NCBI GenBank assembly: GCA_903920145.1
Contig: CAIXKV010000069.1
Coordinates: 5,509-69,508 of the forward strand
Direction of reading: 5' to 3'
Origin: an uncultured Rhodospirillales bacterium
GTDB taxonomy: Bacteria > Pseudomonadota > Alphaproteobacteria > Azospirillales > Azospirillaceae
DNA: 64,000 bases
The notes beneath the pieces were generated by a model. That model worked only from the letters and a program-made list of their open reading frames with translations, had not been told where the DNA came from and did not search any database. Below are positions 1-54,974 of the stretch, piece by piece; position 1 is the first letter of the stretch, and each line of letters begins with the position of its first letter. Made by a program: the position numbers and the translations under genes.

Positions 1-3000
1 TGCTCGATTGCCTCTGGAACAAATCCAAAACGATCAAGAAGTGCTAACTTTTGTTCCCGCGTCAAGTCGATCAACATACTTCCACCCAACGGAGGAAGGT
101 TAAACTGAGTTCTTGCCAAATTATAATACATCCCTTTATAATTCATTTCCTTAATATATAAGGGATCAATTAATTGATGATGCGTCCCTTGTTCTTGTAC
201 GATACCATCCCGAATGAAGCAGATTCGATCTGAATTCATGATCGTCGTCAAACGGTGAGCAATCGAAATCGAAGTTCGTCCAGGCAAAACCTTTTCTTTA
301 AGCTGCTTGATGATCAATTCTTCAGTCTGATTATCAAGCGCGCTGGTGGCCTCGTCAAAGATCATGATCCGTGGCCGACGATAAAGGGCTCGAGCAATAC
401 AAATTCGCTGCCGTTGACCACCCGACAAAGCTTGTCCCTTTTCACCAATCGGCGTCTGATAGCCCAAGGGTAATTTCAAGATAAATTCCTCGGCTCCGGC
501 CAAACGCGCCACTTCCTGCACCGTATGCATATCCGGTTCAGGATCACCAAAGGCGATATTCTCGGCAACCGAACCGGCAAACAGGAAGCTATCTTGAAGC
601 ACAACGCCGATATTCCGCCGCAAAGAGGCAATATCCATCTGATTGATACTCACCCCGTCGATGGTGACTTCGCCTCTCTGGGGGATATTGAAGCCCAAGA
701 TCATCTTGGCAATGGTGCTTTTCCCACACCCCGCCGGCCCGACAAACGCCACCCGTTCACCGGGACTGATCGAGAGGTTGAAATCCTGCATGATATTCAT
801 GGTGTCCTTGCCAGCCCGATAGCTGAAGAACACGCCCCGAAAATCGATCTTGCCTTCGAGCTGTCCCACCGCTTTACGCATCCGACCCGGAGTGGTGGCC
901 ACTTCATCTTCGGGTTCCTTATCGAGAAACTCCGCAACCCGATCCACCGAAATACGCACCTCTTGAAGTTGACTCCACAGATTCACCATTTGCAACACTG
1001 GATTGGTGACAAGCCCCATCAACATCTGGAACCCCATCAACTCACCAACCGTCATCTGGTTGCCGATCACCAAGCTGGCTCCAACCCACAAGACCGTCGT
1101 GGTCATACCCAAGATCGCTAACTGGAAAACGCTCGAATTCATCAAGGACAGACGTTGCTGATGAAATCCACGATTTACATTTTCAACAAAAGCATTTTCC
1201 CAACGGGCCCGCGCAAAATATTCATTACTCGTTGCCTTGATTGGTTCAATTCCGTTTAACGCCTCAATCAAAGCCGACTGCGCTTGGGTATTCGAAAGAA
1301 ATATCTCCTGCGATATTTTCTTTAATCGTGGCGTAAAATACATCACAATTGCGATAAAAATAGGCAAGAATACAATCACAATGATTGATAATGTTGCACT
1401 ATAGGCAAACATCATGAAGAAGTAGATGACAAGCATGAGCACATTCATCACGGTCGTGATCGTTGATCCGGTCAAAATGTGTCGTATTTTTTGATTTTCG
1501 CCAAAACGAGAGAGAATTTCGCCCTTATTCACCCCCATGAAAAAAGACATCGGCAGACTCAGAACATGGCGATAGAATTCCGCCATGAGGCGCATATCCA
1601 GTCGGGTGGTGGTATGGGCCAGCAAAAGAGACTGGATGACCGTCATACCCGTGGTTAATATGGCCACGAGCACCATACCAGCCAACATCATATTCAAAAG
1701 ACTGACATCTTTGTGAACAATAACCGTATCAACAATTGTCTGTGTAAATAATGGTGAAGCTAAACCCAAAATATTAATAACCAGAGCAGCCAAAATCGCT
1801 TCGGCAAAATATCCTTTATAGGGCATGATATAAGATATAAAATAGCTTAACGGATTTTTTTGCTTGATACCTTCCGTTTCAAAGCGTTGAGTCGGCTCCA
1901 ATGCAATAAAAACACCCGCATCCGAACGTTTGTCGGTGACCCCACGCACACTCGCGGCGGTCCACATTTTTATAAATTCGTCTTTAGCAATTCGACGAAC
2001 TTTACTTTCACGTGGATCTGCGATCTGAACTTCGCGTTCACCAACCTTGACCAACACCGCGAAGTGATAACCCTCGAGACTGATGATGCCGGGGAGCAAC
2101 GCAGTCTTAAGATCATCATATCGCAATGCGTAGCCTTTGGAGCGAAAACCAAGGTTTTCTGCACCACGGATGACATCATCGATGTTTAAAGTGGTACTTT
2201 CGAGACCCGTTTTAGCCTTAATCGCATTCAACGGGAATTGACGACCATGATAATTAATAATCATAGTCAAGCATGCCGCTACATTATCAGCCTCTCGTTC
2301 CTGCTTAACCACTTTAAACTTAACAGATTCTTCAGCAACTTTTGAACGAGAACGAAATTCTTCTTCTGTGATCGAGTCAGCAAGCTGAATGCGCTGGTCG
2401 ACACCTTCAGTTCTCTGACGTATACTTAATTCATCCTGTTCATAGCGCTCCAGTTCGCGAATCCGACCTCGGAGCTGTTCGGCTAATTCAGGATTCAATT
2501 CGAGTAATTTTTTGACCGTGGCCTGGTAAATCACCAGCACCGTGACTTCAGTTACCGCCCGTGCCGTATGAGGCTGGTTGCCAGTGGTATCGAGACGCAG
2601 AATCGCCCCACCTTCACCAATCAAAGAGCCGCGACCAACCCGACCAAACGAAATGGCTTCGCCCGAAAGAGGCTGGCGAACCAGCTCAACAGTTCCGCTT
2701 TCAATGTAATAAAGACGAGGATCGTTATCGCCCTGATTGAAAACAGCACCATCGGCCTTGATTCTTTTCACCCCGAGTTCACCAACCATTTGGGTGAAAT
2801 TCTCAGGGGTATATTTGGCTCGGCCAAGCAGGGTTCTTAACCGCTCACCGACTTTAACCAAACCGACAAAGCGTTTGAAATGCTCTTCGACAATCCGATC
2901 TTGACTGATCAGTCCTCGCGCTTCGCGAGCTGGCAATACGATCATCTCCACCGGACCTTCGGTGACGAGATCATGAGTCCAATCGCTATCCCCTAGCAGC

Positions 3001-3293
3001 GACATTTCCCCCAACGTCGCGCCGTCGGTGACAACACCAACGCTGACCAGTTTGTCGCTGGCCTCCTGCTTGAGACGAACGCGGCCATTATAAACAATAT
3101 ACATACCGTCGATGGGCTGACCCTGACGACAAATATGGCTGTTGGCGGCGTAACGACGCACTTCCAGCATAGGTTCCAGCAGGCGCTTTTCAGCAAGCGG
3201 CAGGACGCTAAACATAACGTGGGTCTGAAGCACGTAGCGCACCGCTTCAATCGCCGCGTTGTTGGTCACCCGTTCAAGATTGGCCTTTTGCAT
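1..3293 (-). CDS. ABC exporter (type I secretion / bacteriocin-exporter class) with two N-terminal cyclic-nucleotide-binding-like domains and a C39-peptidase-like domain; 3' end runs off the window
   Basis: Absent from the ORF track (no stop in the window). My translation of the minus strand from ATG at 3293 stays open to base 1, and the frame is consistent at both ends. Seen: two cNMP-binding-like segments, QEREADNVAACLTMIINYHG...GYHFAVLV (C39-like), a multi-TM region, Walker A GPAGCGKST, signature LSGGQRQRICIARA, Walker B IMIFDEATSALD. The ORF continues about 35 codons past the usual NBD end. Plus-strand ORFs 255..473 and 525..1121 are its antisense shadows. Confidence 0.85.
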   Translation of the reverse strand, partial: MQKANLERVTNNAAIEAVRYVLQTHVMFSVLPLAEKRLLEPMLEVRRYAANSHICRQGQPIDGMYIVYNGRVRLKQEASDKLVSVGVVTDGATLGEMSLLGDSDWTHDLVTEGPVEMIVLPAREARGLISQDRIVEEHFKRFVGLVKVGERLRTLLGRAKYTPENFTQMVGELGVKRIKADGAVFNQGDNDPRLYYIESGTVELVRQPLSGEAISFGRVGRGSLIGEGGAILRLDTTGNQPHTARAVTEVTVLVIYQATVKKLLELNPELAEQLRGRIRELERYEQDELSIRQRTEGVDQRIQLADSITEEEFRSRSKVAEESVKFKVVKQEREADNVAACLTMIINYHGRQFPLNAIKAKTGLESTTLNIDDVIRGAENLGFRSKGYALRYDDLKTALLPGIISLEGYHFAVLVKVGEREVQIADPRESKVRRIAKDEFIKMWTAASVRGVTDKRSDAGVFIALEPTQRFETEGIKQKNPLSYFISYIMPYKGYFAEAILAALVINILGLASPLFTQTIVDTVIVHKDVSLLNMMLAGMVLVAILTTGMTVIQSLLLAHTTTRLDMRLMAEFYRHVLSLPMSFFMGVNKGEILSRFGENQKIRHILTGSTITTVMNVLMLVIYFFMMFAYSATLSIIVIVFLPIFIAIVMYFTPRLKKISQEIFLSNTQAQSALIEALNGIEPIKATSNEYFARARWENAFVENVNRGFHQQRLSLMNSSVFQLAILGMTTTVLWVGASLVIGNQMTVGELMGFQMLMGLVTNPVLQMVNLWSQLQEVRISVDRVAEFLDKEPEDEVATTPGRMRKAVGQLEGKIDFRGVFFSYRAGKDTMNIMQDFNLSISPGERVAFVGPAGCGKSTIAKMILGFNIPQRGEVTIDGVSINQMDIASLRRNIGVVLQDSFLFAGSVAENIAFGDPEPDMHTVQEVARLAGAEEFILKLPLGYQTPIGEKGQALSGGQRQRICIARALYRRPRIMIFDEATSALDNQTEELIIKQLKEKVLPGRTSISIAHRLTTIMNSDRICFIRDGIVQEQGTHHQLIDPLYIKEMNYKGMYYNLARTQFNLPPLGGSMLIDLTREQKLALLDRFGFVPEAIE

Positions 3294-3330: not shown

Positions 3331-4695
3331 TCAAGTCTTGGGCGTATTCGACGCCGCTGGGGCCGGGGCCTCGGAAGGAGGTTCGGCTTGGAAGAATTTT
3401 GATGCGGGCGAGAACAGAAGTTCGATGAATCGCTTATCCCCGGTCTTAATCTCGGCTAAACCAGTCAATCCAATCTCCAAAGACTTGACCGGATCTCCTT
3501 GCCGCACAGGTTGACGCTGGACGGTTTCAGATGCCAGACCAACCTTGACTACGAACAAATTAGCCTCACCAGGCGCAGAGCTTGGACGAACGCTAATATC
3601 TGATATCGAACCTCTTTGAATTCCATATTCTTGAAAAGGATAGGCAAAATATTTTATTTTGACCTCTTGCCCAACTTTCAAAAGACCAATATCTTTATTT
3701 TGAACTAAAATTCTAGCTTCCAGTGGCGCCGAATTTTTAACAATTGTAACCAATGGGGCCCCAGGATTGACCAGTTGACCACGTTGAACATGCACAGTCG
3801 TAACAATACCATCAACTGTACTGGAATAATGAGCATGATCCTGCTCATAACGAACACCTGCCACCAAAGTCTGGGCTTGGTGTTGACGATCTTTTAAATC
3901 CTGAATTCGTTCATTAATTTGTTTAACTTCAGTTTCATGATCATCTCTTGCTTTATCAATATCTCGACTCATTCTGTCTAATGTACTTTGGTCACCTTGT
4001 TGTTGCTTGTCACGTTGAGCTGTTTTTAATGAAACTTTTATGTTTTCAATATCAGACTGGGCATTATCGGCGGCCCTTTGTAAATCATCACATTTTGAGC
4101 TGGGAATATCACGACTAGCGCATAAAGGACGATACCGTGCCAAATCATGAAGAACATTATCATGATTACGCTGTGCTGAATTCAGTTGATTTGTTAACTG
4201 ATCAATACGATCATCTAGAGATCCTTTCCCAGTCGTTAATCGTAGCCGTAATTCATCTCTAGATGATTCAAGCTGATGACTTCTATAATCATAGTCACGA
4301 TTTACTGTACTTAGTCGATCTTCGTAATCCCGAATCTGGTGCTCTAAGGCTTCCTGTTCTGGCGTCGAAGCCGCCCGGATCTTTTCTTGAATCGTCGCGA
4401 CCGGGTTTCCCTGGCTAACCGCACTGTTTTCGCTGACATCCAGACTTTCGACCTGACCACCATTGATGGCTTCAACCGTCACCGTCTGGCGCTGCAAGGT
4501 CAAAGGCGCTACCACCAAAGTATCGGTGGTAGCCACAAAAGAGTAAAATAGCATACAAAACACAGTGATAAACATAAAGTAAATTGGCCCACGCAAAATA
4601 AACTTGGGCGCGCTATACAACAATGTTGCCGCTTTAATTGGATGCCGGACCTCGACGGCGATATTTTTAGCTTGCTGAGTGGTCTTCTTTGCCAT
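3331..4695 (-). CDS. HlyD-family membrane fusion (periplasmic adaptor) protein
   Basis: N-terminal TM helix, a long charged coiled-coil middle, and a C-terminal barrel-like region (GIVTTVHVQRGQLVNPGAPLVTIV ... VKIKYFAYPFQEYG). Sits directly upstream of the ABC exporter on the same strand. Confidence 0.85.
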   Translation of the reverse strand: MAKKTTQQAKNIAVEVRHPIKAATLLYSAPKFILRGPIYFMFITVFCMLFYSFVATTDTLVVAPLTLQRQTVTVEAINGGQVESLDVSENSAVSQGNPVATIQEKIRAASTPEQEALEHQIRDYEDRLSTVNRDYDYRSHQLESSRDELRLRLTTGKGSLDDRIDQLTNQLNSAQRNHDNVLHDLARYRPLCASRDIPSSKCDDLQRAADNAQSDIENIKVSLKTAQRDKQQQGDQSTLDRMSRDIDKARDDHETEVKQINERIQDLKDRQHQAQTLVAGVRYEQDHAHYSSTVDGIVTTVHVQRGQLVNPGAPLVTIVKNSAPLEARILVQNKDIGLLKVGQEVKIKYFAYPFQEYGIQRGSISDISVRPSSAPGEANLFVVKVGLASETVQRQPVRQGDPVKSLEIGLTGLAEIKTGDKRFIELLFSPASKFFQAEPPSEAPAPAASNTPKT

Positions 4696-4789: not shown

Positions 4790-5539
4790 TCATGCGGGAA
4801 CGGTACAAACCTGCTCCTTCAGCCATTCATTGAAAATTTGATCTCTAATAATATTTTTAAGTGAGTCTGTTAGTTTTGGCACATTAACTGCGTATATTTT
4901 ATAAACGGTCCACAATGAATTTTCACGAAATGGGCCTATAACCATATTATCAACGCTTTCAAAAGCTTTTTTATCAACTTCTAAAGGCAAAATACCCTTT
5001 TTAACATTACCTATATAACCTCCGGCAAGTCTTGTACTTTCATCAACTGAAAAACAACGAGCCAATTCAACAAAATCTTGCTGGTTTCCCCGTGCCGCCG
5101 CCAAAACCCGTTCGGCTTCATCTCGCGTTCGGCAAGCGATGCGAGCAACAGATACTGAAGCAAAGCGCAACGGTTCGCGACGATAAAATTCTGTAATCTT
5201 ACGCGCTGTAACCAAATGCTGCTTCAGGGCATCCCGAATCACTTCGGTACGAATCGTTTCGTACCACTGTACATCTGATATTCCATAGTAATTGAGATAT
5301 TTCTCAAAAAATTCTGGCCGATCAATACCTAAAGAAATTTTACATGATTTCGCTTTCTTCTCTACATTTTGCTCATCAAGGATTAATCCGAGTTCTTTAA
5401 ATTGCAATTTAAGCACTTTTTGTTCAATCAATTCATAGATTGATGTCCGAAATATACCTTTTAATTTCATATGAACAATCACATCACTGGTGCGAATGGT
5501 CTCGCCTTTAACTGTTGTCACCACCGCTTCAGGCTGCAT
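4790..5539 (-). CDS. parvulin/SurA-like peptidyl-prolyl isomerase
   Basis: C-terminal parvulin-like pattern (DEAERVLAAARGNQQDFVELARCFSVDESTRLAGGYIGNVKKG...GPF...WTVYKI). The ORF extends to 5557, but the ATG at 5539 is preceded by AAGGGA, so I prefer it as the start. Confidence 0.6.
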   Translation of the reverse strand: MQPEAVVTTVKGETIRTSDVIVHMKLKGIFRTSIYELIEQKVLKLQFKELGLILDEQNVEKKAKSCKISLGIDRPEFFEKYLNYYGISDVQWYETIRTEVIRDALKQHLVTARKITEFYRREPLRFASVSVARIACRTRDEAERVLAAARGNQQDFVELARCFSVDESTRLAGGYIGNVKKGILPLEVDKKAFESVDNMVIGPFRENSLWTVYKIYAVNVPKLTDSLKNIIRDQIFNEWLKEQVCTVPA

Positions 5540-5789
5540 GATCAATCCCTTCAGCATTTGGGTTTGACACCAAGAAGCCTATCCGTCCAAATCCAGCGAT
5601 GGCGGATCGGGACGGCCAAACCAATTTCAGCTTGAGGCCTGAATGTGTCACGGAACCTCTCGGGCACCGGTTGCGAAAATGTTTCTGCACAGCGGCGAAA
5701 AACCATAAGGACAAGGGCGTTGCATCCACACCATACACCAAATCGGAATAACACGACATCATATGATCAAAGGGCACTCTAGATTATTG

Positions 5790-17795: not shown

Positions 17796-17823
17796 TGTGA
17801 TGGCTTCCAATCTGAGATAGTGA

Positions 17824-21531: not shown

Positions 21532-21697
21532 GCGCCGACTTTCCGATAAAGGCAAACAGCGCCACCGCGCCGGATCAGCGTTGTGCTAGCACTGGGGAGG
21601 ACTGGTTGCCAAGGTGCCTTGGGCTGCTTTTGGTTTCAGACAGCCCTGCGCGCACCGGGCTTGCGTGGCTGGATCAAGAGGAAATGCTGTGATCTCA

Positions 21698-25006: not shown

Positions 25007-25036
25007 GCGAGGGGATGAGACCAGGGAGGGGGAGTC

Positions 25037-25504: not shown

Positions 25505-25616
25505 CCGGGTTTTGTTGGAATGGTATCATCAGCGATGTCGGAGGAACGGCCCCCACCGTCGACCGTCGCTTCAAGTCATCGGCCAGGCCGGATCACGATT
25601 GCGCCGAACAGGAGGA

Positions 25617-26279: not shown

Positions 26280-26345
26280 TAGTCGCAGGGGTGGCTTTGG
26301 GGATTAAACCCGGTTTCGGCACTGTTTGAGGTCTGGGGTTATGAA

Positions 26346-27965: not shown

Positions 27966-28007
27966 TGCTTTTTGAGCCAATCCCTACCGTCTAGTATCTC
28001 GAAACGG

Positions 28008-30482: not shown

Positions 30483-30483
30483 G

Positions 30484-31530: not shown

Positions 31531-31548
31531 ACGAAGGAACCCAAAGCC

Positions 31549-32289: not shown

Positions 32290-32297
32290 CCCCGGCC

Positions 32298-34773: not shown

Positions 34774-34825
34774 ACCTAAAAACCAGCACAGACCACCCAC
34801 CCCCGACCCGACCGACGAGGATATC

Positions 34826-36835: not shown

Positions 36836-36869
36836 ATCCGCGCGCTCTTGATCGGTTTTGAGGTGATTT

Positions 36870-37685: not shown

Positions 37686-37711
37686 AAATAAGATCATTTG
37701 GGGTGCGTGGC

Positions 37712-42800: not shown

Positions 42801-43769
42801 TCAGGCGTATTTAGACTGTTCCATATCGAACTGAATAGCCAGCATCCGACGCAACAACAAGGCGGATCGTTCCACCGGCTCGGCCTCAAAAGAGGTAACG
42901 GGCAAAGGCTCGCCGACCAAAGCCGCTGCTAGGCAGTGGTTCAAATAGGCCTCGAAAGATGGTGGCAGGTCTCCTAGTTCGGGATCAGGGTCGACATCAT
43001 AGAAAATAGGACCGTCGGGGTTATGGATCGCCAAAGCCACGGCCCAGCGCAATCCCAGGGCTGTGGCAGCGTTACCGACCGTTTCAAGAACCGATGGCGG
43101 CAGATCCGTGACAGGAAACAGGCTTTCCAATCGCTCGATCCCTTCGCGATTGGGCGGCGCCGTGGCCAAAACCAGCACCACATGGCCATCCAGCACATAA
43201 AACCGCAGCAGTGGCCCCGGACACACCGCCGCCAACACAACCGGCGGCTTATCTGGTCCAACCAAGTGCTGCCGTTGCCGCTCTTGGAACCACTGCCAAG
43301 CGGCCCGGCCTGTCATCGGTCGCCAAACCACGCCTTGATGCTGCTGCTGAAAAGCCGCCACCGTCCGGTCATCATTGCCGATCAACATCGGCGGTACGGC
43401 AAAACCAGTTTGGCCTAACCGATCCAGTTGGCCGGGCCGATCAAAGGCGGCCAGCTCGGACGATACCGGGTTATAAAGTCGGGGGCCGCCGCGCTGCTCC
43501 AGCCAGGAGAACACGCTGTATAAAAAGCTGTGAGACTGCTGCCGGATGACGGCTCCCGCTTGCCACAACGACCAATCGCAAATGGGATCTGCCGGCGGCA
43601 ACACAGGGTCTTCATAACGAAAGCCGTGGATATACAAGGCGTCGAGCCGTTCCAAACGGACCTTGTTCCAAGAGACCCCCTCGGAGTCCAGAACCACCGG
43701 CTGTCCTGGCTCTAACCACACCGCATCCCGCACCGGCAGATGTCGGGCTCCAAAAATTCCCACAGTCAC
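42801..43769 (-). CDS. hypothetical protein, possibly ATP-grasp (RimK/glutathione-synthetase-like) fold
   Basis: Only loose pattern resemblance (FDRPGQLDRLGQTGFAVPPMLI...VVWRPMTG...RFYVLDGHVV). Last gene of the TolC-paralog operon strand. Confidence 0.35.
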   Translation of the reverse strand: MTVGIFGARHLPVRDAVWLEPGQPVVLDSEGVSWNKVRLERLDALYIHGFRYEDPVLPPADPICDWSLWQAGAVIRQQSHSFLYSVFSWLEQRGGPRLYNPVSSELAAFDRPGQLDRLGQTGFAVPPMLIGNDDRTVAAFQQQHQGVVWRPMTGRAAWQWFQERQRQHLVGPDKPPVVLAAVCPGPLLRFYVLDGHVVLVLATAPPNREGIERLESLFPVTDLPPSVLETVGNAATALGLRWAVALAIHNPDGPIFYDVDPDPELGDLPPSFEAYLNHCLAAALVGEPLPVTSFEAEPVERSALLLRRMLAIQFDMEQSKYA

Positions 43770-43874
43770 GATCGCCCCCCATATCTGCCAAAGCGGGATG
43801 CCTTTTTGCGGGTGCAGGGCAAAAGCTCCGCAAAACCACCCCTCTGGAGCGCTGCCGTCCCGCCCCCGTCGGCC

Positions 43875-45974
43875 TTACTTCGCCTTCCCGACCTGCTCCG
43901 CTCCAAAATACTTCAGATGGCCGGCATCGGCCAGCAACATCAAGCGGCGCTGGTCAAGGGCTGAGACGGCCAGTTGGCTGGGTAACACATTCGCGATGGT
44001 GCCCTGAGCATAAAGAAGGGTCGTTTCCGCTTCACGACTGTTGATCCGGGCCCCGATCCAGGTCTGTTCGGCGCTAATCCGGTTGCGTAGGGCTTGAATA
44101 ATCTGATCATTGCCCACCAGACCGGCCTCTAACTGACGAACCAAACTATCATAGGCCGATACCAATAGTTTGGTCTCTTGGGCGGCGTGCGTTTCCTGGG
44201 CTCGTGCGCCTTGAAGTACTGCCAGATCGGTGGCGAGTTCTTGACGTACTTGGCCATCGGTCTGACGAATGACTATCTCCTGATCTTCGGCAGACAACCG
44301 GGCAATATCAACCGCAGCATTGGCGGCCCGATTCTTCCAAGGATAGGTATAGGTCAGGGTATAGCTTTGATTGACAGTATCCGGGTTGACCAAATTGGCT
44401 TGGCTCTGCCCCGGATCGGCGTAACCATAGGTCGAACCATTTTCCCCCAAGGTTCCGCTGGCGCTGAATTGAATGTCGGGGCGCGCTTGGTTCTGGGCCA
44501 ATTTCAACGCCACATCGGCACTTTGACGGCCAAGATCGGCAATGAAAAAAGCCGGGCGATTGAGACGGGCGGTACTCAAGGCCACATCAAAGGTCGCAAC
44601 CCGCGTCGCTTCCAGGTCGTGGCCATATCCGTAGGGAAGATAAATAGCGGAGCCGGTGCGAGCGTCTGGATCCCCAATCAATTGCGCCAAGGCCACTGAA
44701 GCCGAGAGATAGACTTGCAATTGTTGTTCGACCGCGATTTCAGCTCGTGATACTTCTGCCTTGACCTGGGCCTCTTCATAGCGTGTGACCAAGCCAGGGT
44801 CTTGTTTGATGATCCGCGCCTGGCGATCCCGAAGGTCGATCGCCATTTTCTGATTTTCAACCGTCGAGCCAAGAATTTCCAATTGGCGCACCAATTCGAA
44901 ATAGGCCAGATCGATGCTTTCCAAAACCTGATTGTTCAGATCCTTGACATTCCAATCGGCTTGATGACGGGCAATGGCCGCGTTCCGAATCGCCGCATGA
45001 TCGGCATTGTCTTCACCGAATCCTTTGCCGAATGGCACCGGTGTATTGAGAGTTACGGTCAGATTGGACGAAAATTCGCCATCTTTCCAATAGTGATTGG
45101 CATCATAATAAATGCGTTGCTGGATCGTCTGATCCGTTACCTGCACCGAACCGCCCCACGGAAGCTCCTGGGTTAGCCCCAACTGCATTGTCACTTGTTG
45201 AATGGGATGGCCATTGTTGATCGTGTTATTTGCCACGATCTCGGCCTGAGTTGGGTTGGTGTTGCCATTTTCATAGAATTCAATCGCCCGAACTGCGGGC
45301 TTGCCCAAATCGGTGCAACTGGCGAAGGGGATGGCACAGAAATCATCCCGCCGATGAACACCATAAGGCCCGAAATTGGCCTGTAACGGATCGATGTAAT
45401 TGGTGGATCCCGCTGGATCGGCATCGAAAGGCGTCACGCCGCCACTGGGAACACTGTTCCCGATATACTGACCCCCCGCTGCCGCCGGCATATCAATGCT
45501 GACCGACTTGGGCTTGACGGTCCCGAGCCGTTCGCGCAGATAGCTGGCTTGGCGGTCATACCCCAGCGACAGATCAAGCACCGGGTCAAACACCGCCTCG
45601 GCCTCGCGGACCAGAGCTTGCGCCAAGTCTGACTGTTGCCGACCGATGGCCAGTGGCAGGTTGGTTGCTAGCCCTTTGACCACGGCATCACGGCGGTTGA
45701 TCGGTAAGATTGCCCGCGAAGCCACGTCGCCGCGACCCATCTTCCGTGCCGTCAACAGGCTTTCAACCAAGGCCCGCGATCGCTTCTGATCCTCCAGCAC
45801 CGGGGCCGGGGTCAATTGGGCCTCGACCACCGCCGCCACAGCGACGGCATGGTGCTGGACGGCATCAGAGCCAAGTTCGGCTCCGGCGGCAAGCGATGGC
45901 AGCGACGCCGCCAACGACAGGCTTGCCGCAACCGAAGCTGTACGCAGCAGGGCTTTGCGGTCGGCAGTCATCAC
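43875..45974 (-). CDS. oversized TolC-family outer-membrane factor, paralog 3 (699 aa)
   Basis: Signal peptide. Two OEP repeats marked by ...EAVFDPVLDLSLGY... and ...ARPDIQFSASGTLGENGSTYGY... A large insert between the repeats contains a Cys pair (FCAIPFASC). Its start overlaps the upstream stop by 4 nt. Confidence 0.75.
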   Translation of the reverse strand: MMTADRKALLRTASVAASLSLAASLPSLAAGAELGSDAVQHHAVAVAAVVEAQLTPAPVLEDQKRSRALVESLLTARKMGRGDVASRAILPINRRDAVVKGLATNLPLAIGRQQSDLAQALVREAEAVFDPVLDLSLGYDRQASYLRERLGTVKPKSVSIDMPAAAGGQYIGNSVPSGGVTPFDADPAGSTNYIDPLQANFGPYGVHRRDDFCAIPFASCTDLGKPAVRAIEFYENGNTNPTQAEIVANNTINNGHPIQQVTMQLGLTQELPWGGSVQVTDQTIQQRIYYDANHYWKDGEFSSNLTVTLNTPVPFGKGFGEDNADHAAIRNAAIARHQADWNVKDLNNQVLESIDLAYFELVRQLEILGSTVENQKMAIDLRDRQARIIKQDPGLVTRYEEAQVKAEVSRAEIAVEQQLQVYLSASVALAQLIGDPDARTGSAIYLPYGYGHDLEATRVATFDVALSTARLNRPAFFIADLGRQSADVALKLAQNQARPDIQFSASGTLGENGSTYGYADPGQSQANLVNPDTVNQSYTLTYTYPWKNRAANAAVDIARLSAEDQEIVIRQTDGQVRQELATDLAVLQGARAQETHAAQETKLLVSAYDSLVRQLEAGLVGNDQIIQALRNRISAEQTWIGARINSREAETTLLYAQGTIANVLPSQLAVSALDQRRLMLLADAGHLKYFGAEQVGKAK

Positions 45975-48139
45975 AGCGGACCTCCGAAGTGTTTGAGAGC
46001 GCCGGACTCGCGCAACAGGGCGAGCCGCTCGCGATCGATGCCGGTTTGCGCGGTCAGATCGCCGTAACGCTCGGCAAGAGCGCCCACCGAGGCCAACAGG
46101 GTTGATTCGGCAATCCGTTGCTGAACTTCGGCTTGAACCAACGCTGTTTTGGCTGAAAACAGCGTCGAGAGGCGCGAGATCGTCTCGTAAGCCGCGACCA
46201 AGCCCTGGTCCTGTTGCTCCAGCGCCAAGTCATAGACCGTCTGGGCATTCTTGACATTTTGTTTGGCGATCCGCACCTGTTCCCGCGCCGAGGCCAGCGC
46301 CCCTCGTGCGGTCTCAAAGCTTTCCCGCGCCTTCAACTCGACCTCGTGCAACAAAATGGCCTGTTGATTGAGGTTATGTTCGGCCTGAGTCAGAGCCGCC
46401 TCGGCGGCGCGGTTGCCGATGGGGAGCTGATAGAGCAAGCCTAAGGTCGCGGTGAACTGATCCTGGGTCAGGAAACCATTGTAAAGGGATTCCCCGATCG
46501 AGCTATAGCCGTAGGTGCAGCATTCCGCAGCGGAAACATTGGCTGTGACCGACAGGTCAGGGCGAGTTTGGGCTTCGCTCTGAGTCCGCCGCAAACTGGC
46601 AATCCGCACCGCCACCGCTTGGCGCTGATAATCGGGGTTTTCCAGGATGCGGTCAGGTTCTGTGATGTCCGTCGTCTGCCGTCTGAGCAAGGACTCGTCA
46701 CCAATCGGCAGCAGCAATGCGTTATTTTTACTGTCCAGTAACTTCTGCATGGACTCGGATATGCTGATATAATTGGCGAACAGTTGCTGCCGGGTCGCCC
46801 GAATGCTGGAAATCTGAGCGTCGGCCTGACCTCGATCACTTTCGGTGACGAAGCCTTGGGTAAACAGCCGCTGAATCCGGTCCCGTTTCTCTTCAGCCGC
46901 CCGAAGTGACTGGTTGGCAATCTCCAGGCTCCTGACCGCCCCAACGAGCTGCCAATACAGCGTATCCACACTCAGAAGCGTGCTGTTGATCACGCTGCGC
47001 ACGCCGAATTCGGCGGCATCGATGTTATGACGGGCAATATCAGCGTTAACATCGCCGGCCGCTGTCGGGCCAAAATTCTTGGTGTAGGGCAATGGCAACG
47101 ACGCCCCCACCGCAATGGTGGTGAAGTACGGCATGTGATAGTTGCCGTAAGTCTGAGGCAGACCGTTGAACTGGTTCAGCGGATAATAACTGGACTGGCG
47201 CTTCGTGGACAGACTAAGATTCAGGCTTGGTCCCCACGGCAATTGCTGAAGAATTTCAGCCGTCCCCGTGTAGGTCTGTTGATTCAGCGGCGCAAAGGGC
47301 GAGGGTGCGTTGGCCTGAATGCCCTCTCCGGCCCCCAATTGATAATATCCTGCCGGTCGATCATGATTGTACTGAATCGCCAGGATCGTCGTGCGTGTGG
47401 GGAATGTGATGACGTAGCAGCCATTGACCCCCGGCGTCTGAGTCAGAGCCGCCGCTGCTGGTGTACAACGGAACACACCATTGGAGTCCACACCGCCCAA
47501 CGGCACAAACTGGGTATCGGGCTTGAATTTCTGAGGGTATTCAGTGCGAGTCGACTGATTGAGCAAGGCCGCGTTTGCAGTCGCGACAAACACCGGATCG
47601 AAGACCGCTTGAGCCTCGATCAACGCCCGCTCGGCGCTGGCTTTGGCGAGGCCGCTGCGTTTGATGTCTAAATTCTTGCGCAAAGCATCCAGTGCCGCCT
47701 CGCGGAGCGCCAACTCGGTGGTGGCGGTCGGCGCGTAAAGCGAGGTGGCGCCAAGGGATGCGCGGGTGATTTCCACCACCTTGTTGCGAACCCGCTCTTG
47801 CGTCAGGCTTGGAACATCAAGCACAAAGAGCTGTGGCGGCAGTTCGTAGCCGAACGGTTGGCCCGGCCCAGCCTGATGGACCGGCAGGGGCGCAGCCTGG
47901 GCTGGAACAGGCACCGCCGCCGGGTCGGCCTGCCCAACGCCGCTCCCCAGCAACAGCATGGTCCCTGCCAACGCACTGGTCAGCCCGACCGTCGAGACAA
48001 GTCGCCGATGGCGGCAGCGATGGCGATCAAAGAGGGAAGCCTTCTCACCATGACGCTGGGTCGTGGGTGTGTTCATCGCCCTTCCCTCACTGGACGCCTG
48101 CACGGAGCCGGCCGTGCGCCGATCACAATCAGCGAACAT
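45971..48139 (-). CDS. oversized TolC-family outer-membrane factor, paralog 2 (722 aa)
   Basis: Signal peptide. Repeats marked by ...AQAVFDPVFVATANA... and ...TRPDLSVTANVSAAECCTYGY... The insert carries a Cys pair (FRCTP...NGCYV). The start at 48139 overlaps the upstream stop; the alternative is M at 48076. Confidence 0.75.
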   Translation of the reverse strand: MFADCDRRTAGSVQASSEGRAMNTPTTQRHGEKASLFDRHRCRHRRLVSTVGLTSALAGTMLLLGSGVGQADPAAVPVPAQAAPLPVHQAGPGQPFGYELPPQLFVLDVPSLTQERVRNKVVEITRASLGATSLYAPTATTELALREAALDALRKNLDIKRSGLAKASAERALIEAQAVFDPVFVATANAALLNQSTRTEYPQKFKPDTQFVPLGGVDSNGVFRCTPAAAALTQTPGVNGCYVITFPTRTTILAIQYNHDRPAGYYQLGAGEGIQANAPSPFAPLNQQTYTGTAEILQQLPWGPSLNLSLSTKRQSSYYPLNQFNGLPQTYGNYHMPYFTTIAVGASLPLPYTKNFGPTAAGDVNADIARHNIDAAEFGVRSVINSTLLSVDTLYWQLVGAVRSLEIANQSLRAAEEKRDRIQRLFTQGFVTESDRGQADAQISSIRATRQQLFANYISISESMQKLLDSKNNALLLPIGDESLLRRQTTDITEPDRILENPDYQRQAVAVRIASLRRTQSEAQTRPDLSVTANVSAAECCTYGYSSIGESLYNGFLTQDQFTATLGLLYQLPIGNRAAEAALTQAEHNLNQQAILLHEVELKARESFETARGALASAREQVRIAKQNVKNAQTVYDLALEQQDQGLVAAYETISRLSTLFSAKTALVQAEVQQRIAESTLLASVGALAERYGDLTAQTGIDRERLALLRESGALKHFGGPL

Positions 48140-50414
48140 AGTCCCGCTCCAGGATCCCTTGGGCCGCCAACAGGTTGACTTGCGCCTTGTGGAGGTTCAC
48201 TTCGGCGGTGATCAGGCCCAAACGGGCCGACACCAAGTCCTGGTACTTATTCAGCACCTCGAACTCTGCCACAAAGCCCAATTCGCGCTGTTCCCGAGCC
48301 CGGTCGTAAGCGCATTGAGCCAGTTTGAGATCATCCCGGCTTTGGCCAACCACCAATTCCGCCGAACGGGCAACCCCCAACGCCTGATCAACCGAATTGA
48401 CCACCGTCTGCCGTGCGAGGCGCGTGCTGTCATAGGCTTGGCGTTCCACAATCCGCGCATGATCCAGCGCGGCCCCGGTGGCGTTCATGCCGATCGGCAG
48501 GTGATATTGCAGCCCGACGAACAGATTAGACGTATCCGGCTTGTACAGATGCGCCAGGGACTCTTGCAGACTGACATAGCCGAAAACAGAGTTATTCTCA
48601 CCCAAGCTATAACTGGCAGACAGGCTAATATCTGGCAAGTCCTGATTCGCACTATAGTCTAAATTCAGCTTACTCGCCGTATAATTCTCTTCAGCGACCT
48701 TGATATCGGGATGCGTCGTCAGGGCGCGGTCATAAACTCCATCCCCATTGATCACCACCGGCTGCCGTAACAAGGCATCTCCATCGGCCGGCAGCAACAG
48801 GGCGCGCTGATCTCCGGTGGTTACGGTTCCCAAATGACTAGAGGTGGCTAGCAATTGGTTCCACGTTGTCTCCTCTTGGGAATCGAGAGAGGCCAACTGA
48901 ATCTCAAGCTGGGTTAGGTCGTAGCGGGTCGCTAAACCGGCGTCGAACAGCCGCTTCTGGCTGGCTTGACGCTCGACCAGCGTCGCTCGCAAGTCAAAAA
49001 GCGCACGAAGCGTCTGGACCGACTGCACCAAGTCCCAATAGCTGTTGAGGGCTTGTGCTAAGGTGCTGTTCCGGGTCGACAGGCTGGACCAAGCCGCATT
49101 GCGCTGCCCGGACCGAGCAATTTGATAATTGTAGAAGTCCGGTGACCCTTCATAGCCCGCATTTTTGGTGAAGGGGAGCGGTAAGGTTAAAGAGAGATTG
49201 GCGGAACTGGTCCAAAACAGCGTATTGCTCCACCCATAAGGGTTGTAAACGCTGTTGTCTGGATAAGCCGGGCTGGTATTAAACGGAGCCCCATTGGCAA
49301 GCGCGACGGGGCGATACCAAGTCGAAGACAGGCTTGCCGATAGGGTACCGTTGAGCGCAAAGGGAGGCGTCGGCGACGGCGCCGCTGGCAGCTCATCACC
49401 AGTCCAACCGGCAATCGGCTGATCATTGACCGCTCCACCGATGATGAAGTTCCAACTGATCCCGAGCGTTCCCACCGCCGTTTGGTTGGAGTCCGACGCA
49501 ATCGAGGCGTATTCCGTCTGTACCGAGTAAGCCGGTGGTAATTGACAGCCGGGATCGGGCGGTAGGATCGTTTGACCATCAACATTGACCGACGGCTGGC
49601 ACTCGGTCGGAACCCCGGAACTGGGAATCCCCCGTGCCGCCGCTTCCGCCGCCGCCACCGACTGCTTGTCCTGATCGCGCATCCGGCCAATTAGGCTATG
49701 ACGGTCGTTGGTGTAACTGTTGGTGTAGGTCAAAGATGTGAAAAAGGTCGGATCGAACGCCGCATCATCCTGGATGACCAGGGCACGAGCAATCTCGATG
49801 CTCTCGGTCGCCGAGCGCACGTCAAGATTCTGACGCAGCACCATATCGGCCAACGCATTTTGCGTGATGTCACGAACGGGCAATTCACGAAGGCGTGCCC
49901 GTGCCCCATCGTTTCCAGCCCGCAACTGGTCGCGTAGAGCCTCGGGCTTGGATATTGGCAACAGTTGGGCTTCAGGCACCACCGGACAGGCTGCCGCAAC
50001 CGCTGCAACCGGGAACAGCCCGGCGGGCGCTCCTTTGACGGGAGCCTTCTGAACCGAAGCGGCCTTGGCGGGAGCCGCTTTAGGCGAAGGCGGCGGCGAG
50101 GCGGCTGCCGATCCGGGCTTGGCCAGCGCCGGTTTAGCTGCTGCGGGCGCCGGCGTGGCTGCCGAAACAGGCGCTGGCGGGGGCGCCGGGTTCGTCACCG
50201 CTGGCGGAACCGGAACGTCCCCGGCAATAGCCGTAGCGTCCATACCGAACGACAACAGAGTGCCTGCGCAAACCGATGCCAAGGCCAGCCGACAGCCTGC
50301 ATCCCGTGGTCGGCCTTCAGCCGGCGAGGGGGCCGCTCGAGAGATAGTCTGATGCGTCATCGCGTGCTTCGTCACCCCTCGTGCCCCCAGCCGCAGATTT
50401 CTAACTGTCTTCAA
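48129..50414 (-). CDS. oversized TolC-family outer-membrane factor, paralog 1 (761 aa) with Ala/Pro-rich N-terminal extension
   Basis: Signal-like segment, then an AP-rich low-complexity stretch. Repeats marked by ...DDAAFDPTFFTSLTY... and ...QDLPDISLSASYSLGENNSVFGY... The insert carries a Cys pair (TECQP...PGCQL). Confidence 0.75.
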   Translation of the reverse strand: MKTVRNLRLGARGVTKHAMTHQTISRAAPSPAEGRPRDAGCRLALASVCAGTLLSFGMDATAIAGDVPVPPAVTNPAPPPAPVSAATPAPAAAKPALAKPGSAAASPPPSPKAAPAKAASVQKAPVKGAPAGLFPVAAVAAACPVVPEAQLLPISKPEALRDQLRAGNDGARARLRELPVRDITQNALADMVLRQNLDVRSATESIEIARALVIQDDAAFDPTFFTSLTYTNSYTNDRHSLIGRMRDQDKQSVAAAEAAARGIPSSGVPTECQPSVNVDGQTILPPDPGCQLPPAYSVQTEYASIASDSNQTAVGTLGISWNFIIGGAVNDQPIAGWTGDELPAAPSPTPPFALNGTLSASLSSTWYRPVALANGAPFNTSPAYPDNSVYNPYGWSNTLFWTSSANLSLTLPLPFTKNAGYEGSPDFYNYQIARSGQRNAAWSSLSTRNSTLAQALNSYWDLVQSVQTLRALFDLRATLVERQASQKRLFDAGLATRYDLTQLEIQLASLDSQEETTWNQLLATSSHLGTVTTGDQRALLLPADGDALLRQPVVINGDGVYDRALTTHPDIKVAEENYTASKLNLDYSANQDLPDISLSASYSLGENNSVFGYVSLQESLAHLYKPDTSNLFVGLQYHLPIGMNATGAALDHARIVERQAYDSTRLARQTVVNSVDQALGVARSAELVVGQSRDDLKLAQCAYDRAREQRELGFVAEFEVLNKYQDLVSARLGLITAEVNLHKAQVNLLAAQGILERDYVR

Positions 50415-50471
50415 TTCGTGCCAGCCCGATATGGAAACAACAACCTTTTCCAGCGGCGGATGAAACGGGCC

Positions 50472-50491
50472 CGCCCGAAAACGGGCGTTTT
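50472..50491 (+). terminator. small terminator-like hairpin in the divergent intergenic region
   Basis: CGCCCG-AAAA-CGGGCG followed by TTTT. No plus-strand gene lies upstream, so it may be a leader attenuator or an sRNA end. Confidence 0.3.
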
Positions 50492-50661
50492 CCTATTCTA
50501 TTGTGTCTGTTTTGCAACGTGATCGGTAACGGTTGCCCGTGCTCGCGTCCTCCGGCATAGTGACGAACGATGAGAAGAGGGCGACGCCTGACCGAGAAAT
50601 GGGGCCCGAACCTTGCCTCAATGAGTTCTCGATGTGGCGACTGGCCATACCAAATTAGACC

Positions 50662-52050
50662 ATGGCACGAATCGGTAGGACGACCATGACCAATTTCAAC
50701 GAAGACCGTACTGTTGCCTTCAATGATCATGGCGCGGACAGGGACCATGGCGGCCCCAAGGCCGGCTTGGTCGAGGCTCCTCGGGCGCGCTTGGTCTGCA
50801 CGGACCCATCCCAGGTTGAAAGCGCCTTGCCCGGAGGCGGCATCATCAATCTGGTTCCAGGAACCGAACAAACCGTTGGTCGAGGCGAAACCTGCACCTA
50901 TCCGATTGGTTCGCGCAAGTTATCGCGGCAGCATGCTCGCATCTTTGTCGGTATGGGTGCCTGGGGGGTTGAAGACCTTAACAGCACAAATGGCGTGCGT
51001 GTGAATGATGAAAAGGTTCAAACTGCTTGGCTAAAGCAAGGTGATGAAGTTCGCTTTGGCCCAATCCCGTTTCGTTTTGAGATCGAGCGCCCTGATGGCC
51101 TTCGCCCAATTCCTTTGCCTTCGGCACCCGAGGGTAGTGAGGGTGAGCACACTATGATCTTCGGTGGTGACAGCGGCGTTCAAGCCGCCGCTGCCATGAT
51201 CAAAGCCGTGCGTGAGTCAGAACAGATCGAAGATGAGCAACCACTGGTTATCGTGCCGACCGCTCCCCCGAAAAAAACTGCGGCTGTTGCAACTCCAAAT
51301 AAAAAGAACGGCACTTGGATTCTGGCGACGGCCATCGCAACAGCGGTTGTCATGGTGATCGGTGGCGTGATCTATCTCTACCCCTCCGTCATGCGCAGCC
51401 AGAAGATCGCCGCCATCACCACACCCGACACAGCAATTATTACGCGAGTCATTGATCGTGCCCGCGAAACGACCGGCACCCCCACCGATACCAGCCGGCT
51501 GGATGACATCAACCTGTTGCAGCCTGTGATTCGGGATACTGGAAATGCCGTCGATGGCGAGTATGCTGATAGCCGAGAACTCGCTAATCTTTATGCTCGT
51601 AGCCGTTTCTTGGTGTTTGAACGGGAATTCCTTCCTCTATTCACACATCCAGATGCCACGGGCGAGGCTTTAAAAGAGGCCGGCCGCAAGGCTTATGAGT
51701 TGCGCAGCCGCCTCGATAAAATCAGCCACACGCTGGCACCACTACCGATCGGCATCGATCAGGATCCATTGAAGGCCGCCGCTGATCTTGCCGATCTTGC
51801 CCGCATTCTGGTGGACTACCGCAGCTTCTCTCGTCAGTTCCCCTTGGTGGGTAAAACCGCCACTCAACCAACTTTGCCACAAATCAAGGCGGTCGAGGCC
51901 CGGAAAGACGAGTTGATCAAGTATCGTCACTTGTACAATGAAGTTTTGGGCAGCGATTATCGCCTATTTAACGCTCAAGTCCAAGATGTCGAAAACAATG
52001 ACATGGGCTTGTTGGGCCGTTGGCATGACTTCTTGGTTTCTGGACAGTAA
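50662..52050 (+). CDS. FHA-domain protein with a single TM helix and a helical extracytoplasmic C-terminal domain
   Basis: FHA motifs VGRGE...SRQHARI...NSTNGVRVND, TM WILATAIATAVVMVIGGVIYLY, and ~215 aa after it with no recognised family. Confidence 0.8.
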   Translation: MARIGRTTMTNFNEDRTVAFNDHGADRDHGGPKAGLVEAPRARLVCTDPSQVESALPGGGIINLVPGTEQTVGRGETCTYPIGSRKLSRQHARIFVGMGAWGVEDLNSTNGVRVNDEKVQTAWLKQGDEVRFGPIPFRFEIERPDGLRPIPLPSAPEGSEGEHTMIFGGDSGVQAAAAMIKAVRESEQIEDEQPLVIVPTAPPKKTAAVATPNKKNGTWILATAIATAVVMVIGGVIYLYPSVMRSQKIAAITTPDTAIITRVIDRARETTGTPTDTSRLDDINLLQPVIRDTGNAVDGEYADSRELANLYARSRFLVFEREFLPLFTHPDATGEALKEAGRKAYELRSRLDKISHTLAPLPIGIDQDPLKAAADLADLARILVDYRSFSRQFPLVGKTATQPTLPQIKAVEARKDELIKYRHLYNEVLGSDYRLFNAQVQDVENNDMGLLGRWHDFLVSGQ

Positions 52051-53704: not shown

Positions 53705-54091
53705 TCAATCCATGGTCTGAAACTGACCTGGAAGTGTAATACTGATAATCCCGGCCCAACTGCACATACATTTCGAGCCGTTGTTTAAAGCGGGCATATT
53801 CCCGATCAACACTGTCGGCGCTCCCGGAACCCAAGGGGCCGCCGTAACAGGTATACAGGGCATAGGTGTTAGAACCCCCAACGCCGCCGCCGTCGCCGCA
53901 ATAACCGTGGGGTTGGCCGGGCTGGAACACATGCCAAAGGGCATGATGTTAACCATCGGCTTATTGTCCATGATGTTGGCGGCGGCTGGACCGCCGGCCA
54001 TGACCAGATTCAGCGGCAACACATTGAGCGTGCTTGGGGCCATGCCAAAACTGCACTGAAGCATGGCCCCGGAAACAACCTGAATCCCCAT
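53705..54091 (-). CDS. DUF4280 (PAAR-like) domain protein
   Basis: MGIQVVSGAMLQCSFGMAPSTLNVLP...NIMPFGMCSS..NP...PCIPVTAAPWVPGAPTVLIGNMPALNNGSKCMCSWAGIISITLPGQ matches the conserved Cys/Gly pattern I recall for DUF4280. The internal start at 54091 is preferred. Confidence 0.7.
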   Translation of the reverse strand: MGIQVVSGAMLQCSFGMAPSTLNVLPLNLVMAGGPAAANIMDNKPMVNIMPFGMCSSPANPTVIAATAAALGVLTPMPCIPVTAAPWVPGAPTVLIGNMPALNNGSKCMCSWAGIISITLPGQFQTMD

Positions 54092-54101
54092 GGTCCCCCA
54101 C

Positions 54102-54974
54102 CTAAGCGCGACAGGTCCGGGCCGCAGCGGCATAATCGATCAGCACCGCGATTCGCTTGAGAGCGCCGGCCAAATGAACATGATCGAGGGCGTATTGCTG
54201 GCCTTGCCGACCGATGCGCTCGGCTAGATGTGGGTGCCGGGCGAGATGAGCAATCACTTCAAACAACCCCTGACCATCGGGAGCAATCGGCACATAATGA
54301 ACCCACGGCATCAGCCCTTCGGCCCAATACTCGTTGTATTCACCATCCACCACCAGAACCGGACGACCGGAATGGAGAAGAAACTTCCGCCGCCCGCTAT
54401 ATCCGGCACCACGGATGTCCAAGAGCATGGCATAGGCGCAGTGATCGGGCAAGGAGACATAATCGGAAGCGGCCAAACGGCCCTCTTCGCTGATTGCGTC
54501 TCGCCAGCGCATGGACCGGAAATCGGCGAGATCCGGGTGAGCCTGAGCGTTGGTATAAATCACTTCACGCAACGGATGCGTTGCCGTGTTGCCGATCCAA
54601 AAGCACCGGGGCTCGGAAGGGGCGGTGGCCGAGGCCATCAGGATGGTGTGAACACTGTCCTGATAATTCCGAATCCCGGCTTCAACCCAGGCATGGAACG
54701 AAAAACACGGAAAACTATGGACACCAGGAACCCGCTTGGATCGGGCGAAGGCAAAGACCGGAAAGCCTAAATTGGGCAAGACATCGGCAATCCGAAAGAT
54801 GTCGTCGCCGGTAAAGACGCCGAACGCCCAATCGCCTTCTGGCATTATCCGTCGATGAACCGCAAAGGCCGTCTGGGTCAATTGGATGACGCTGGCATTT
54901 CGGCTTTGAAAACCGCCATGGTCTTCGACATCAAGACGGTCAGCAGCTCGACGAAAGACCACAAGACTTCTCAT
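54102..54974 (-). CDS. GT90/CAP10-like glycosyltransferase (LPS- or protein-modifying)
   Basis: YAMLLDIRGAGYSGRRKFLLHSGRPVLVVDGEYNEYWAEGLMPWVHYVPI resembles the CAP10/KDELC-type motif (...W.E.....L.PWVHY.P.). Confidence 0.55.
   Translation of the reverse strand: MRSLVVFRRAADRLDVEDHGGFQSRNASVIQLTQTAFAVHRRIMPEGDWAFGVFTGDDIFRIADVLPNLGFPVFAFARSKRVPGVHSFPCFSFHAWVEAGIRNYQDSVHTILMASATAPSEPRCFWIGNTATHPLREVIYTNAQAHPDLADFRSMRWRDAISEEGRLAASDYVSLPDHCAYAMLLDIRGAGYSGRRKFLLHSGRPVLVVDGEYNEYWAEGLMPWVHYVPIAPDGQGLFEVIAHLARHPHLAERIGRQGQQYALDHVHLAGALKRIAVLIDYAAAARTCRA

Follow-up and report, generated by a model that had tools for sequence, protein, structure and literature searches.

To our knowledge, all ducts of the TolC family examined so far are homotrimers, and present models for the docking of hexameric adaptors and for channel opening build on this symmetry. 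In characterised systems the adaptor hairpins dock at the tip motif of the outer-membrane factor (OMF). Large surface-exposed inserts are unusual in this family, whose extracellular face is normally minimal. Here, we analysed a stretch of 64,000 nt (the window; all positions are window coordinates) of contig CAIXKV010000069.1 from an uncultured Rhodospirillales bacterium, in which three consecutive genes, called here A, B and C, encode long proteins of the TolC family. On balance we favour the reading that this triplet is the outer-membrane exit duct of a dedicated peptide secretion system of the type I, or peptidase-containing ABC transporter (PCAT), kind, and that A, B and C most likely co-assemble in it. 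If so, it would be the first TolC-family channel made of three different subunits, and such a conserved duct of three paralogs would reveal how the architecture copes with asymmetry or makes use of it.

A precedent for a heteromeric assembly exists at another component of efflux machinery, as the MdtBC heterotrimer of the resistance-nodulation-division (RND) class is a normally homotrimeric component built from paralogs of one operon (PMC8277102). For the inner-membrane side, HetC of Nostoc PCC 7120 combines an N-terminal cyclic-nucleotide-binding domain, a C39 peptidase, a transmembrane domain (TMD) and a nucleotide-binding domain (NBD), and its peptidase is active and essential (PMC10986499). 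Graspetide loci commonly have as partners a C39-ABC transporter, HlyD and a peptidyl-prolyl isomerase (PPIase) of family TIGR04500, and TolC-type or FHA proteins are not mentioned in the survey that describes them (PMC8939145). Within the incomplete coverage of our literature search, we found neither a heteromeric TolC-family duct nor a cassette combining FHA, TolC-triplet and ATP-grasp genes.

The three genes of the triplet are the following:

48129..50414, minus strand: OMF paralog A (position 1), 761 aa (open reading frame (ORF), two Pfam OEP stretches, A clade in the tree and profile assignment)
45971..48139, minus strand: OMF paralog B (position 2), 722 aa (ORF, two Pfam OEP stretches, AlphaFold2 (AF2) model, Foldseek)
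43875..45974, minus strand: OMF paralog C (position 3), 699 aa (ORF, two Pfam OEP stretches, C clade in the tree and profile assignment)

An earlier note on this DNA had listed three consecutive minus-strand ORFs of these lengths with overlapping ends, and the coordinates were borne out: A and B overlap by 11 nt (48129-48139), and B and C by 4 nt, GTGA (45971-45974). Each protein contains two stretches matching Pfam OEP (PF02321), with 82.4, 85.7 and 72.6 bits for A, B and C against a cut-off of 22 (E-values of 4.9e-23, 4.6e-24 and 4.8e-20, respectively). The three ORFs are genuine TolC/OMF-family proteins. Their pairwise identities are 29% (A/B), 25% (A/C) and 28% (B/C), and they do not reach the curated TolC/NodT subfamilies, the best scores against TIGR01844 / TIGR01845 being 83.4, 71.1 and 33.0 bits with a cut-off of 225; they belong to a separate long OMF subfamily. 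Both repeats which the note had described are thus present, while the signal peptides it had proposed correspond to what can be seen by eye and in a hydropathy scan, namely N-terminal hydrophobic segments followed by AxA-like sites in all three proteins, the starts of A and B being uncertain. The shared landmarks it had pointed to, FDP and GENxSxxGY or CCTYGY, are found in A, B and C, but the CC of CCTYGY shows no conservation in orthologs.

Family membership, fold, position of the insert, conservation of the triplet and of its gene cassette, and orthology of the pump were observed or computed directly. A sequence search of the PDB with B, and with a profile of B orthologs, detected no chain. 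The fold was confirmed on a model of B alone, A and C being placed by motif anchors. With 20 orthologs AF2 gave a model of low confidence (pLDDT 62.5), and the model used here, built on a 65-sequence alignment, reached a pLDDT of 90.6 and a pTM of 0.73. In Foldseek this model matched TolC (1ek9) with an E-value of 9e-15 and TMt of 0.70, and 44 of the 44 PDB matches at E<=1e-3 are OMFs. All six periplasmic tips of A, B and C retain the motif G(L/F)(V/A)xxx(D/E/Q), and the helical segments are equally long in A, B and C across loci (78-80, 73 and 46 residues). We also tried covariation of helix lengths as a test for a heterotrimer, which was uninformative, the lengths being invariant.

The additional length of these proteins had been ascribed to an insert between the two repeats. 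In the B model, and by motif anchors in A and C, it sits instead inside repeat 1, between strands S1 and S2:

49215-49715, minus strand: insert of A, residues ~234-400 (motif anchors)
47129-47560, minus strand: insert of B, residues ~194-337 (AF2 model)
45075-45548, minus strand: insert of C, residues ~143-300 (motif anchors)

The insert has 140-170 aa and consists of a cysteine-pair domain and an additional beta-hairpin. In the model of B, helix H2 is followed by strand S1 (B 183-194, FDPVF motif), then by a beta-rich domain of ~90 residues which holds the invariant C225/C241, and by an additional long hairpin (286-300 / 303-315) that turns, over two residues, at the almost invariant PWG, found in 125 of the 134 full-length B-related clusters; a short hairpin and strand S2 (B 338-349, ending PLPYTK) then lead into the long helix H3. 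The insert is predicted from this model to occupy extracellular loop 1 of TolC and to face the cell surface. Of the two placements that the earlier note had offered for a disulfide-bearing structure, extracellular or equatorial, the model thus agrees with the former and not with the latter. Repeat 1 of the B model has four long strands instead of two. If the PWG hairpin enters the membrane barrel, it may give six strands per protomer instead of four, up to 18 in total against 12; the hydrophobic alternation of the additional hairpin of B is partial.

The closely spaced cysteine pair reported for all three inserts is indeed there, and it is kept in orthologs (A C272/C290; B C225/C241, in 20/20; C C213/C220). 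In the family of A, two further cysteines covary, Cys143 in the N-terminal segment (window 49986-49988) and Cys701 in the last helix pair (48312-48314). Both are present in 11 of 12 orthologs, with a gap at the C143 column in the twelfth, and both are absent in 6 orthologs, a pattern that suggests a second, lineage-specific disulfide in A. The insert explains the excess length only in part, since an N-terminal linker, Pro/Ala-rich and long in A, and C-terminal tails of B and C make up the remainder. These tails differ by position and are constant across loci: A has none, B has ~31 aa and C ~36 aa. The tail of B is conserved and ends ...RLALLRESGALKHFGGPL, and that of C contains ...RLMLLADAGHLKYFG.... 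One related locus (L018:6800-15779) carries a very long triplet (887, 836 and 902 aa) followed by an ATP-grasp-like gene, with neither an FHA gene nor a pump in its flanks; inserts and termini can thus grow further.

Conservation of the triplet was assessed in related loci. A word-indexed search of 5.8 billion clusters gave 14-20 close homologs per paralog, and an exhaustive HMMER search with mature B gave 181 representative clusters at E<=1e-30, nearly all of 600-1000 aa; the system would be represented by no fewer than 181 sequence clusters, most of them from uncultured bacteria. According to the cluster names, some orthologs of A, B and C come from metagenome-assembled genomes (MAGs) of Alphaproteobacteria / Rhodospirillaceae, and one from a 'Hydrogenedens' MAG. 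In a neighbour-joining tree A, B and C form three cleanly separated clades. We annotated 58 loci (numbered with an L prefix) with family hidden Markov models (HMMs) and used 21 independent loci for a test of position. Wherever the flank is sufficient, a locus has three such genes, A-type first, then B-type and C-type, even among relatives that share only 27-31% identity with B, and none of the annotated loci with complete flanks has fewer than three paralogs. In the 21 loci, the best cross-locus match falls on the same position in 390/420, 353/420 and 363/420 comparisons for positions 1, 2 and 3. The fixed order, the position-specific orthology and the identity of 25-29% rule out a recent lineage-specific duplication, and by these criteria the triplication is old. 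The proposal that the paralogs are coupled and non-redundant is therefore strongly supported, and the same data argue that A, B and C belong to a single entity in which they cannot stand in for one another.

A 1:1:1 heterotrimer seems to be the most economical reading of this pattern. It is favoured because of obligate co-retention, fixed order and coupled translation, and because each cassette has one set of partner genes (described below) and the position-specific asymmetries are conserved. A, B and C, made at coupled stoichiometry, would most likely co-assemble as one pseudo-threefold TolC-like trimer, to which each subunit would add its disulfide-bonded domain and beta-hairpin in surface loop 1, forming an asymmetric extracellular crown. 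It could be argued, instead, that A, B and C form three separate homotrimeric ducts, which would serve different cargo or different pump states, or would differ in the surface domain only (receptor diversification, evasion of phages or bacteriocins). A, B and C are each a full protomer with two repeats and both tip motifs, the inserts differ strongly among them, and the PDB matches are OMFs, of which all solved structures are, as far as is known, homotrimeric. However, all three genes are retained in fixed order over deep divergence, with no complete-flank locus having one or two; the cassette has a single adaptor, ABC, FHA gene and ATP-grasp-like gene; and both the translational coupling and asymmetries such as the tail-less A are conserved. 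We thus consider three homotrimers rather unlikely, though the chief competitor to the heterotrimer.

The genes of the triplet overlap or are closely spaced in all loci. In the window, the starts of A and B are uncertain: the second ATG of B (M22, 48076) is preceded by a strong Shine-Dalgarno sequence, GAGGGAAGGG, and an exact-match database entry begins A 53 aa downstream. If B starts at M22, there is no 11-nt overlap between A and B. The same junction contains a short conserved block:

48092..48121, minus strand: 30-nt block CGGCGCACGGCCGGCTCCGTGCAGGCGTCC (sequence inspection)

This block sits after the stop of A and before the Shine-Dalgarno sequence of the second ATG of B, and it contains a perfect hairpin of 6 bp (GCACGG-CCGGCT-CCGTGC). 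In 8 loci it is almost unchanged, although their flanking/B proteins share just 62-95% identity, and it is absent from L001, L015 and L027. The block may be an element of translational coupling or attenuation.

The triplet is part of a conserved cassette in which an FHA-TM gene and an ATP-grasp-like gene flank A, B and C almost everywhere. In the window these two genes are:

50662..52050, plus strand: FHA-TM protein, with an FHA domain, one transmembrane (TM) helix and a periplasmic domain of ~220 aa (Pfam FHA, E 7.8e-17)
42801..43769, minus strand: p322, cytoplasmic ATP-grasp-like protein, last gene of the OMF operon (family profile against PDB 7drm, PsnB)

The FHA-TM gene is divergent from A in the window; in distant relatives it belongs to the same operon and stands directly upstream. 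Its product has the TM helix at residues 219-237 and weakly matches the TagH (TIGR03354, 35 bits against a cut-off of 120) and YscD-type families. The p322 family, with members of ~320-350 aa, is encoded right after the third OMF gene in essentially every locus. A profile of six orthologs matches PDB 7drm (PsnB) with E 2.5e-15 and 5ig8 with E 1e-3, and the window sequence alone gives a weak TIGR04187 match (E 2e-6). In 15/15 members WRP stands for (V/A)KP, LA(x) for QE and D-x-D/E for D-C-N, whereas all three signatures are intact in five canonical ATP-grasp genes from these neighbourhoods. The replaced residues (Lys, Gln-Glu, Asn) are the ATP-grasp signature residues. p322 is a diverged paralog of graspetide macrocyclases and, from these replacements, would be non-catalytic or altered in activity; perhaps it acts as a cargo-binding adaptor.

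In distant loci the operon opens with an HlyD adaptor and an ABC exporter of ~1067 aa, composed of two cNMP-binding domains, a C39 peptidase, a TMD and an NBD. These two genes immediately precede the FHA gene in the L030 group, L031, L037, L038, L040, L042, L045, L051 and L053, and are adjacent in L046, so that the pump shares the operon with the triplet in ten related loci. The window has a corresponding pair at its left edge, preceded by a rotamase gene:

1..3293, minus strand: ABC exporter, two cNMP-binding domains, C39-like domain, TMD and NBD, cut by the window edge (Pfam)
3331..4695, minus strand: HlyD-type periplasmic adaptor, or membrane-fusion protein (Pfam HlyD_3 / HlyD_D23)
4790..5557, minus strand: PpiC-type rotamase, upstream of HlyD (Pfam Rotamase)

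The window ABC is 52-53% identical to the operon-linked ABCs over 1057 aa, and the window HlyD is 41-46% identical to the operon-linked HlyD genes, values which match the level among the operon-linked copies themselves. The domain architecture of the ABC is also the same (two cNMP_binding, Peptidase_C39, ABC_membrane and ABC_tran). The full gene encodes 1112 aa, and the genes that come after it are hydrogenase genes without relation to the system. The best NCBIfam matches remain below their cut-offs, type_I_sec_HlyB for the ABC (599.9 bits, E 6e-180, cut-off 725.55) and type_I_hlyD for the adaptor (107 bits, E 1e-30, cut-off 208.65). By identity and architecture, the HlyD/ABC pair of the window is the ortholog of the operon-linked pump, and its HlyD is likely the cognate adaptor of the triplet. 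On this evidence the cassette is split in this genome or clade, with the pump at 1-4695 and the FHA, A, B, C and ATP-grasp-like genes at 42801-52050. The earlier note had treated the triplet as having no cognate pump, a view that this orthology overturns. Its statement that no membrane-fusion protein or transporter lies in or beside the operon holds literally, but it overlooked an MsbA-related ABC exporter at 55693-57510 (minus strand). This exporter scores 854.6 bits against a TIGR02204 cut-off of 780.4. Its flanking genes are GT90 and, in relatives, AhpC, and it stands without an adaptor and outside the conserved cassette.

The proposed system would thus comprise, besides the triplet, the HlyD adaptor, the ABC exporter with cNMP and C39 or C39-like domains, the inner-membrane FHA protein and the catalytically degenerate ATP-grasp protein. 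A HlyD hexamer could dock on A:B:C as on TolC, because the helix lengths are equal and all six tips keep their motifs. We infer this docking, as well as heterotrimer assembly, the cargo and regulatory roles of the FHA and cNMP domains, from the features described here. The rotamase gives a weak match to the 'peptide maturation system' family TIGR04500 (E 7e-12, far below cut-off); it is a possible peptide-maturation accessory, whose membership in the system is uncertain. Around the pump, the left 12 kb (1-12000) have 45-49% GC, against 57-63% for much of the rest, and contain a sigma-54 activator (5916-7199), a Sel1 gene (8701-9708) and a RepA_C plasmid-replication-type gene (9698-10678); from its composition and genes, this part looks like an integrated mobile segment.

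As the triplet is unlinked from any pump in the clade of the window, and its tips are canonical, it might, in whatever oligomeric form, be a general-purpose duct such as TolC of E. coli, serving many unlinked efflux and secretion pumps, with the operon-linked pump as one client. An unlinked tolC is normal in enterobacteria. However, the constant FHA-TM and ATP-grasp-like genes argue for a dedicated system, and the family is rare and seems confined to genomes which have the cassette. We therefore find a general-purpose duct improbable.

The triplet may also be regarded not as the duct of a distant pump but as part of an envelope-spanning structural or signalling device together with FHA-TM, and perhaps with TssKLM-like genes or genes resembling the type II secretion system (T2SS), the surface domains being sensors or adhesins. 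No neighbour is more constant than the FHA-TM gene, which in alphaproteobacterial loci is also the sole membrane partner near the triplet; its product gives the weak TagH and YscD-type matches mentioned above, and the window triplet lies between a T2SS-like cluster and DUF4280/TssKLM genes. Against this, TssKLM is missing at this place in the 95%-identical relative L011, and also in L001, L004, L015 and all distant loci, the T2SS-like genes are not conserved neighbours, the pump genes are in the same operon in ten loci, and the tip motifs for adaptor docking are kept. We give such a device little credence. A link to the type VI secretion system (T6SS), based on TssK/L/M, DUF4280 and the TagH-like FHA protein, and a link to the T2SS were both dropped, the neighbourhood being unconserved and TssKLM standing by the cassette in this contig only.

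TssK, DotU/TssL and a 1364-aa IcmF/TssM-like protein, of which just the first ~530 residues match TssM, are encoded at 57570-63801 (minus strand) together with 53705-54133. The module stands alone, with only a 164-aa ORF and then divergent sugar genes upstream, and there are no sheath, Hcp, VgrG or baseplate genes near it in the source contig; the DUF4280 (PAAR-like) gene lies 3.5 kb from it. The T2SS / type IV pilus-like cluster (21614-38593, plus strand) contains a prepilin peptidase, a secretin, a fusion of a Ser/Thr kinase with an FGE-sulfatase domain, a GspE-type ATPase whose N-terminus carries an FHA domain, GspF, three N-methyl pseudopilins, a T2SSM-like protein and a Sel1/SPOR protein. 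Its Ser/Thr kinase (26346-27965) could be the source of phospho-threonine for the FHA proteins of the window.

For the secretion system that we favour, related loci offer possible cargo. Six of them carry one to three tandem glycine-rich ORFs of 80-105 aa. Their products have a site of the KSGG|D type close to the N-terminus, and the C-terminus, GGD(V/A)(T/S)DNxxIGxIN(I/V)xx, is conserved. These ORFs are located at the following positions of their loci:

L001:20181-20426
L013:17960-18617
L031:13332-13580
L037:14795-15684
L038:10217-10456
L045:883-1681, minus strand

In L013, L031 and L037 they adjoin an ATP-grasp gene, and the copies scanned (L013 and L031) have ribosomal-peptide-maturase families as best matches. 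In L045 an ATP-grasp match, cut by the end of the locus, stands beside three glycine-rich copies, and the Pfam scan of the neighbours of the L001 ORF returned nothing. The glycine-rich ORFs are candidates for cargo of the cassette or for precursors of peptides that are ribosomally synthesized and then post-translationally modified (RiPPs). The likely cargo would thus be Gly-rich KSGG|D peptides encoded beside a canonical graspetide-type ligase in related loci, not in the window. Small ORFs near the rotamase and the sigma-54 activator (e.g., 79 aa at 7330-7569) were considered as well, and none is a convincing precursor.

Several observations weigh against a dedicated, co-assembled duct. Equal helix lengths and tip motifs reflect constraints on OMFs in general and are compatible with three homotrimers, too. 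The pump of the window is ~38-40 kb from the triplet, so that co-function here rests on orthology and not on linkage, and it lies in a segment of lower GC (45-49% against 57-59%) next to the RepA_C gene. The C39 domain of the window has DNVAAC for ECGxAC, with the nucleophile Cys replaced by Asn and with His and Asp kept, which makes the protein an ABC with a C39-like domain; this Cys is also missing in L031 and L037, and the triad is kept in L042, L045, L046 and L051. In L013 and L018 the triplet comes with the ATP-grasp-like gene, but their flanks contain neither an FHA gene nor a pump. Moreover, the glycine-rich ORFs are predictions with no Pfam or NCBIfam match, and neither a glycine-rich cargo gene nor a canonical ATP-grasp ligase is found in the window or in the 6.7 kb past its left edge. 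A bolder form of the proposal, which we put forward tentatively as it seems to us somewhat doubtful, holds that the duct is an obligate 1:1:1 assembly with a barrel of maybe up to 18 strands and three different disulfide-bonded surface domains, and that it is the exit of a widespread, undescribed machine for Gly-rich, ATP-grasp-associated peptides, gated from the cytoplasmic side by the FHA protein, by the pseudo-ATP-grasp protein as cargo adaptor and by the cNMP domains.

Two further features of the window touch none of these subjects directly. A single 665-aa ORF at 15813-17810 (minus strand) encodes cytochrome b fused to cytochrome c1, an arrangement found in some Alphaproteobacteria, and agrees with the taxonomic labels of the orthologs. 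A 798-aa protein with ~14 predicted TM helices (38679-41075, minus strand) has no Pfam or NCBIfam match, and its gene is kept beside NTP-transferase and pentapeptide genes in L011.

The locus can be compared with several known systems. MdtBC, as a precedent for heteromeric assembly, differs in concerning the inner-membrane RND component and not the OMF. HetC is likened to the ABC exporter by domain architecture alone; it differs in that the C39 Cys of the window is replaced by Asn and in that no linked TolC triplet, FHA or ATP-grasp gene is described for it in PMC10986499. With graspetide loci (PsnB, MdnB/C) the cassette shares the homology of p322 and, in related loci, a canonical ligase with tandem small peptide genes, whereas the signature residues of p322 are replaced and the Gly-rich peptides match no described family. 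The exporters of colicin V and class II microcins (CvaA-CvaB-TolC) and other Gram-negative type I systems of the PCAT kind have in common with it a C39-domain ABC, an HlyD-type adaptor and a TolC-type duct, and the candidate cargo of the cassette consists of small Gly-rich peptides with a Gly-Gly site. The present locus differs from them in having a dedicated three-paralog duct instead of the housekeeping TolC, two cNMP domains on the ABC, FHA-TM and degenerate ATP-grasp genes in the operon, and a window C39 without the catalytic Cys. Finally, in common with the TolC/OMF family (TolC 1EK9, OprM, CusC, VceC, CmeC, MtrE), A, B and C have two OEP repeats, the TolC fold, the S1 'FDP' and S2/S5 'P-x-P / P-I-G' strand motifs and G(L/F)(V/A)xxx(D/E) tips, but they carry the disulfide-bearing insert of 140-170 aa and the PWG hairpin between S1 and S2, and they are three obligatorily linked paralogs instead of one gene. 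The cassette would connect type I secretion with control by FHA domains (phospho-threonine) and cyclic nucleotides, and with chemistry of the graspetide kind, in an apparently unstudied secretion system with a new family of candidate secreted Gly-rich peptides.

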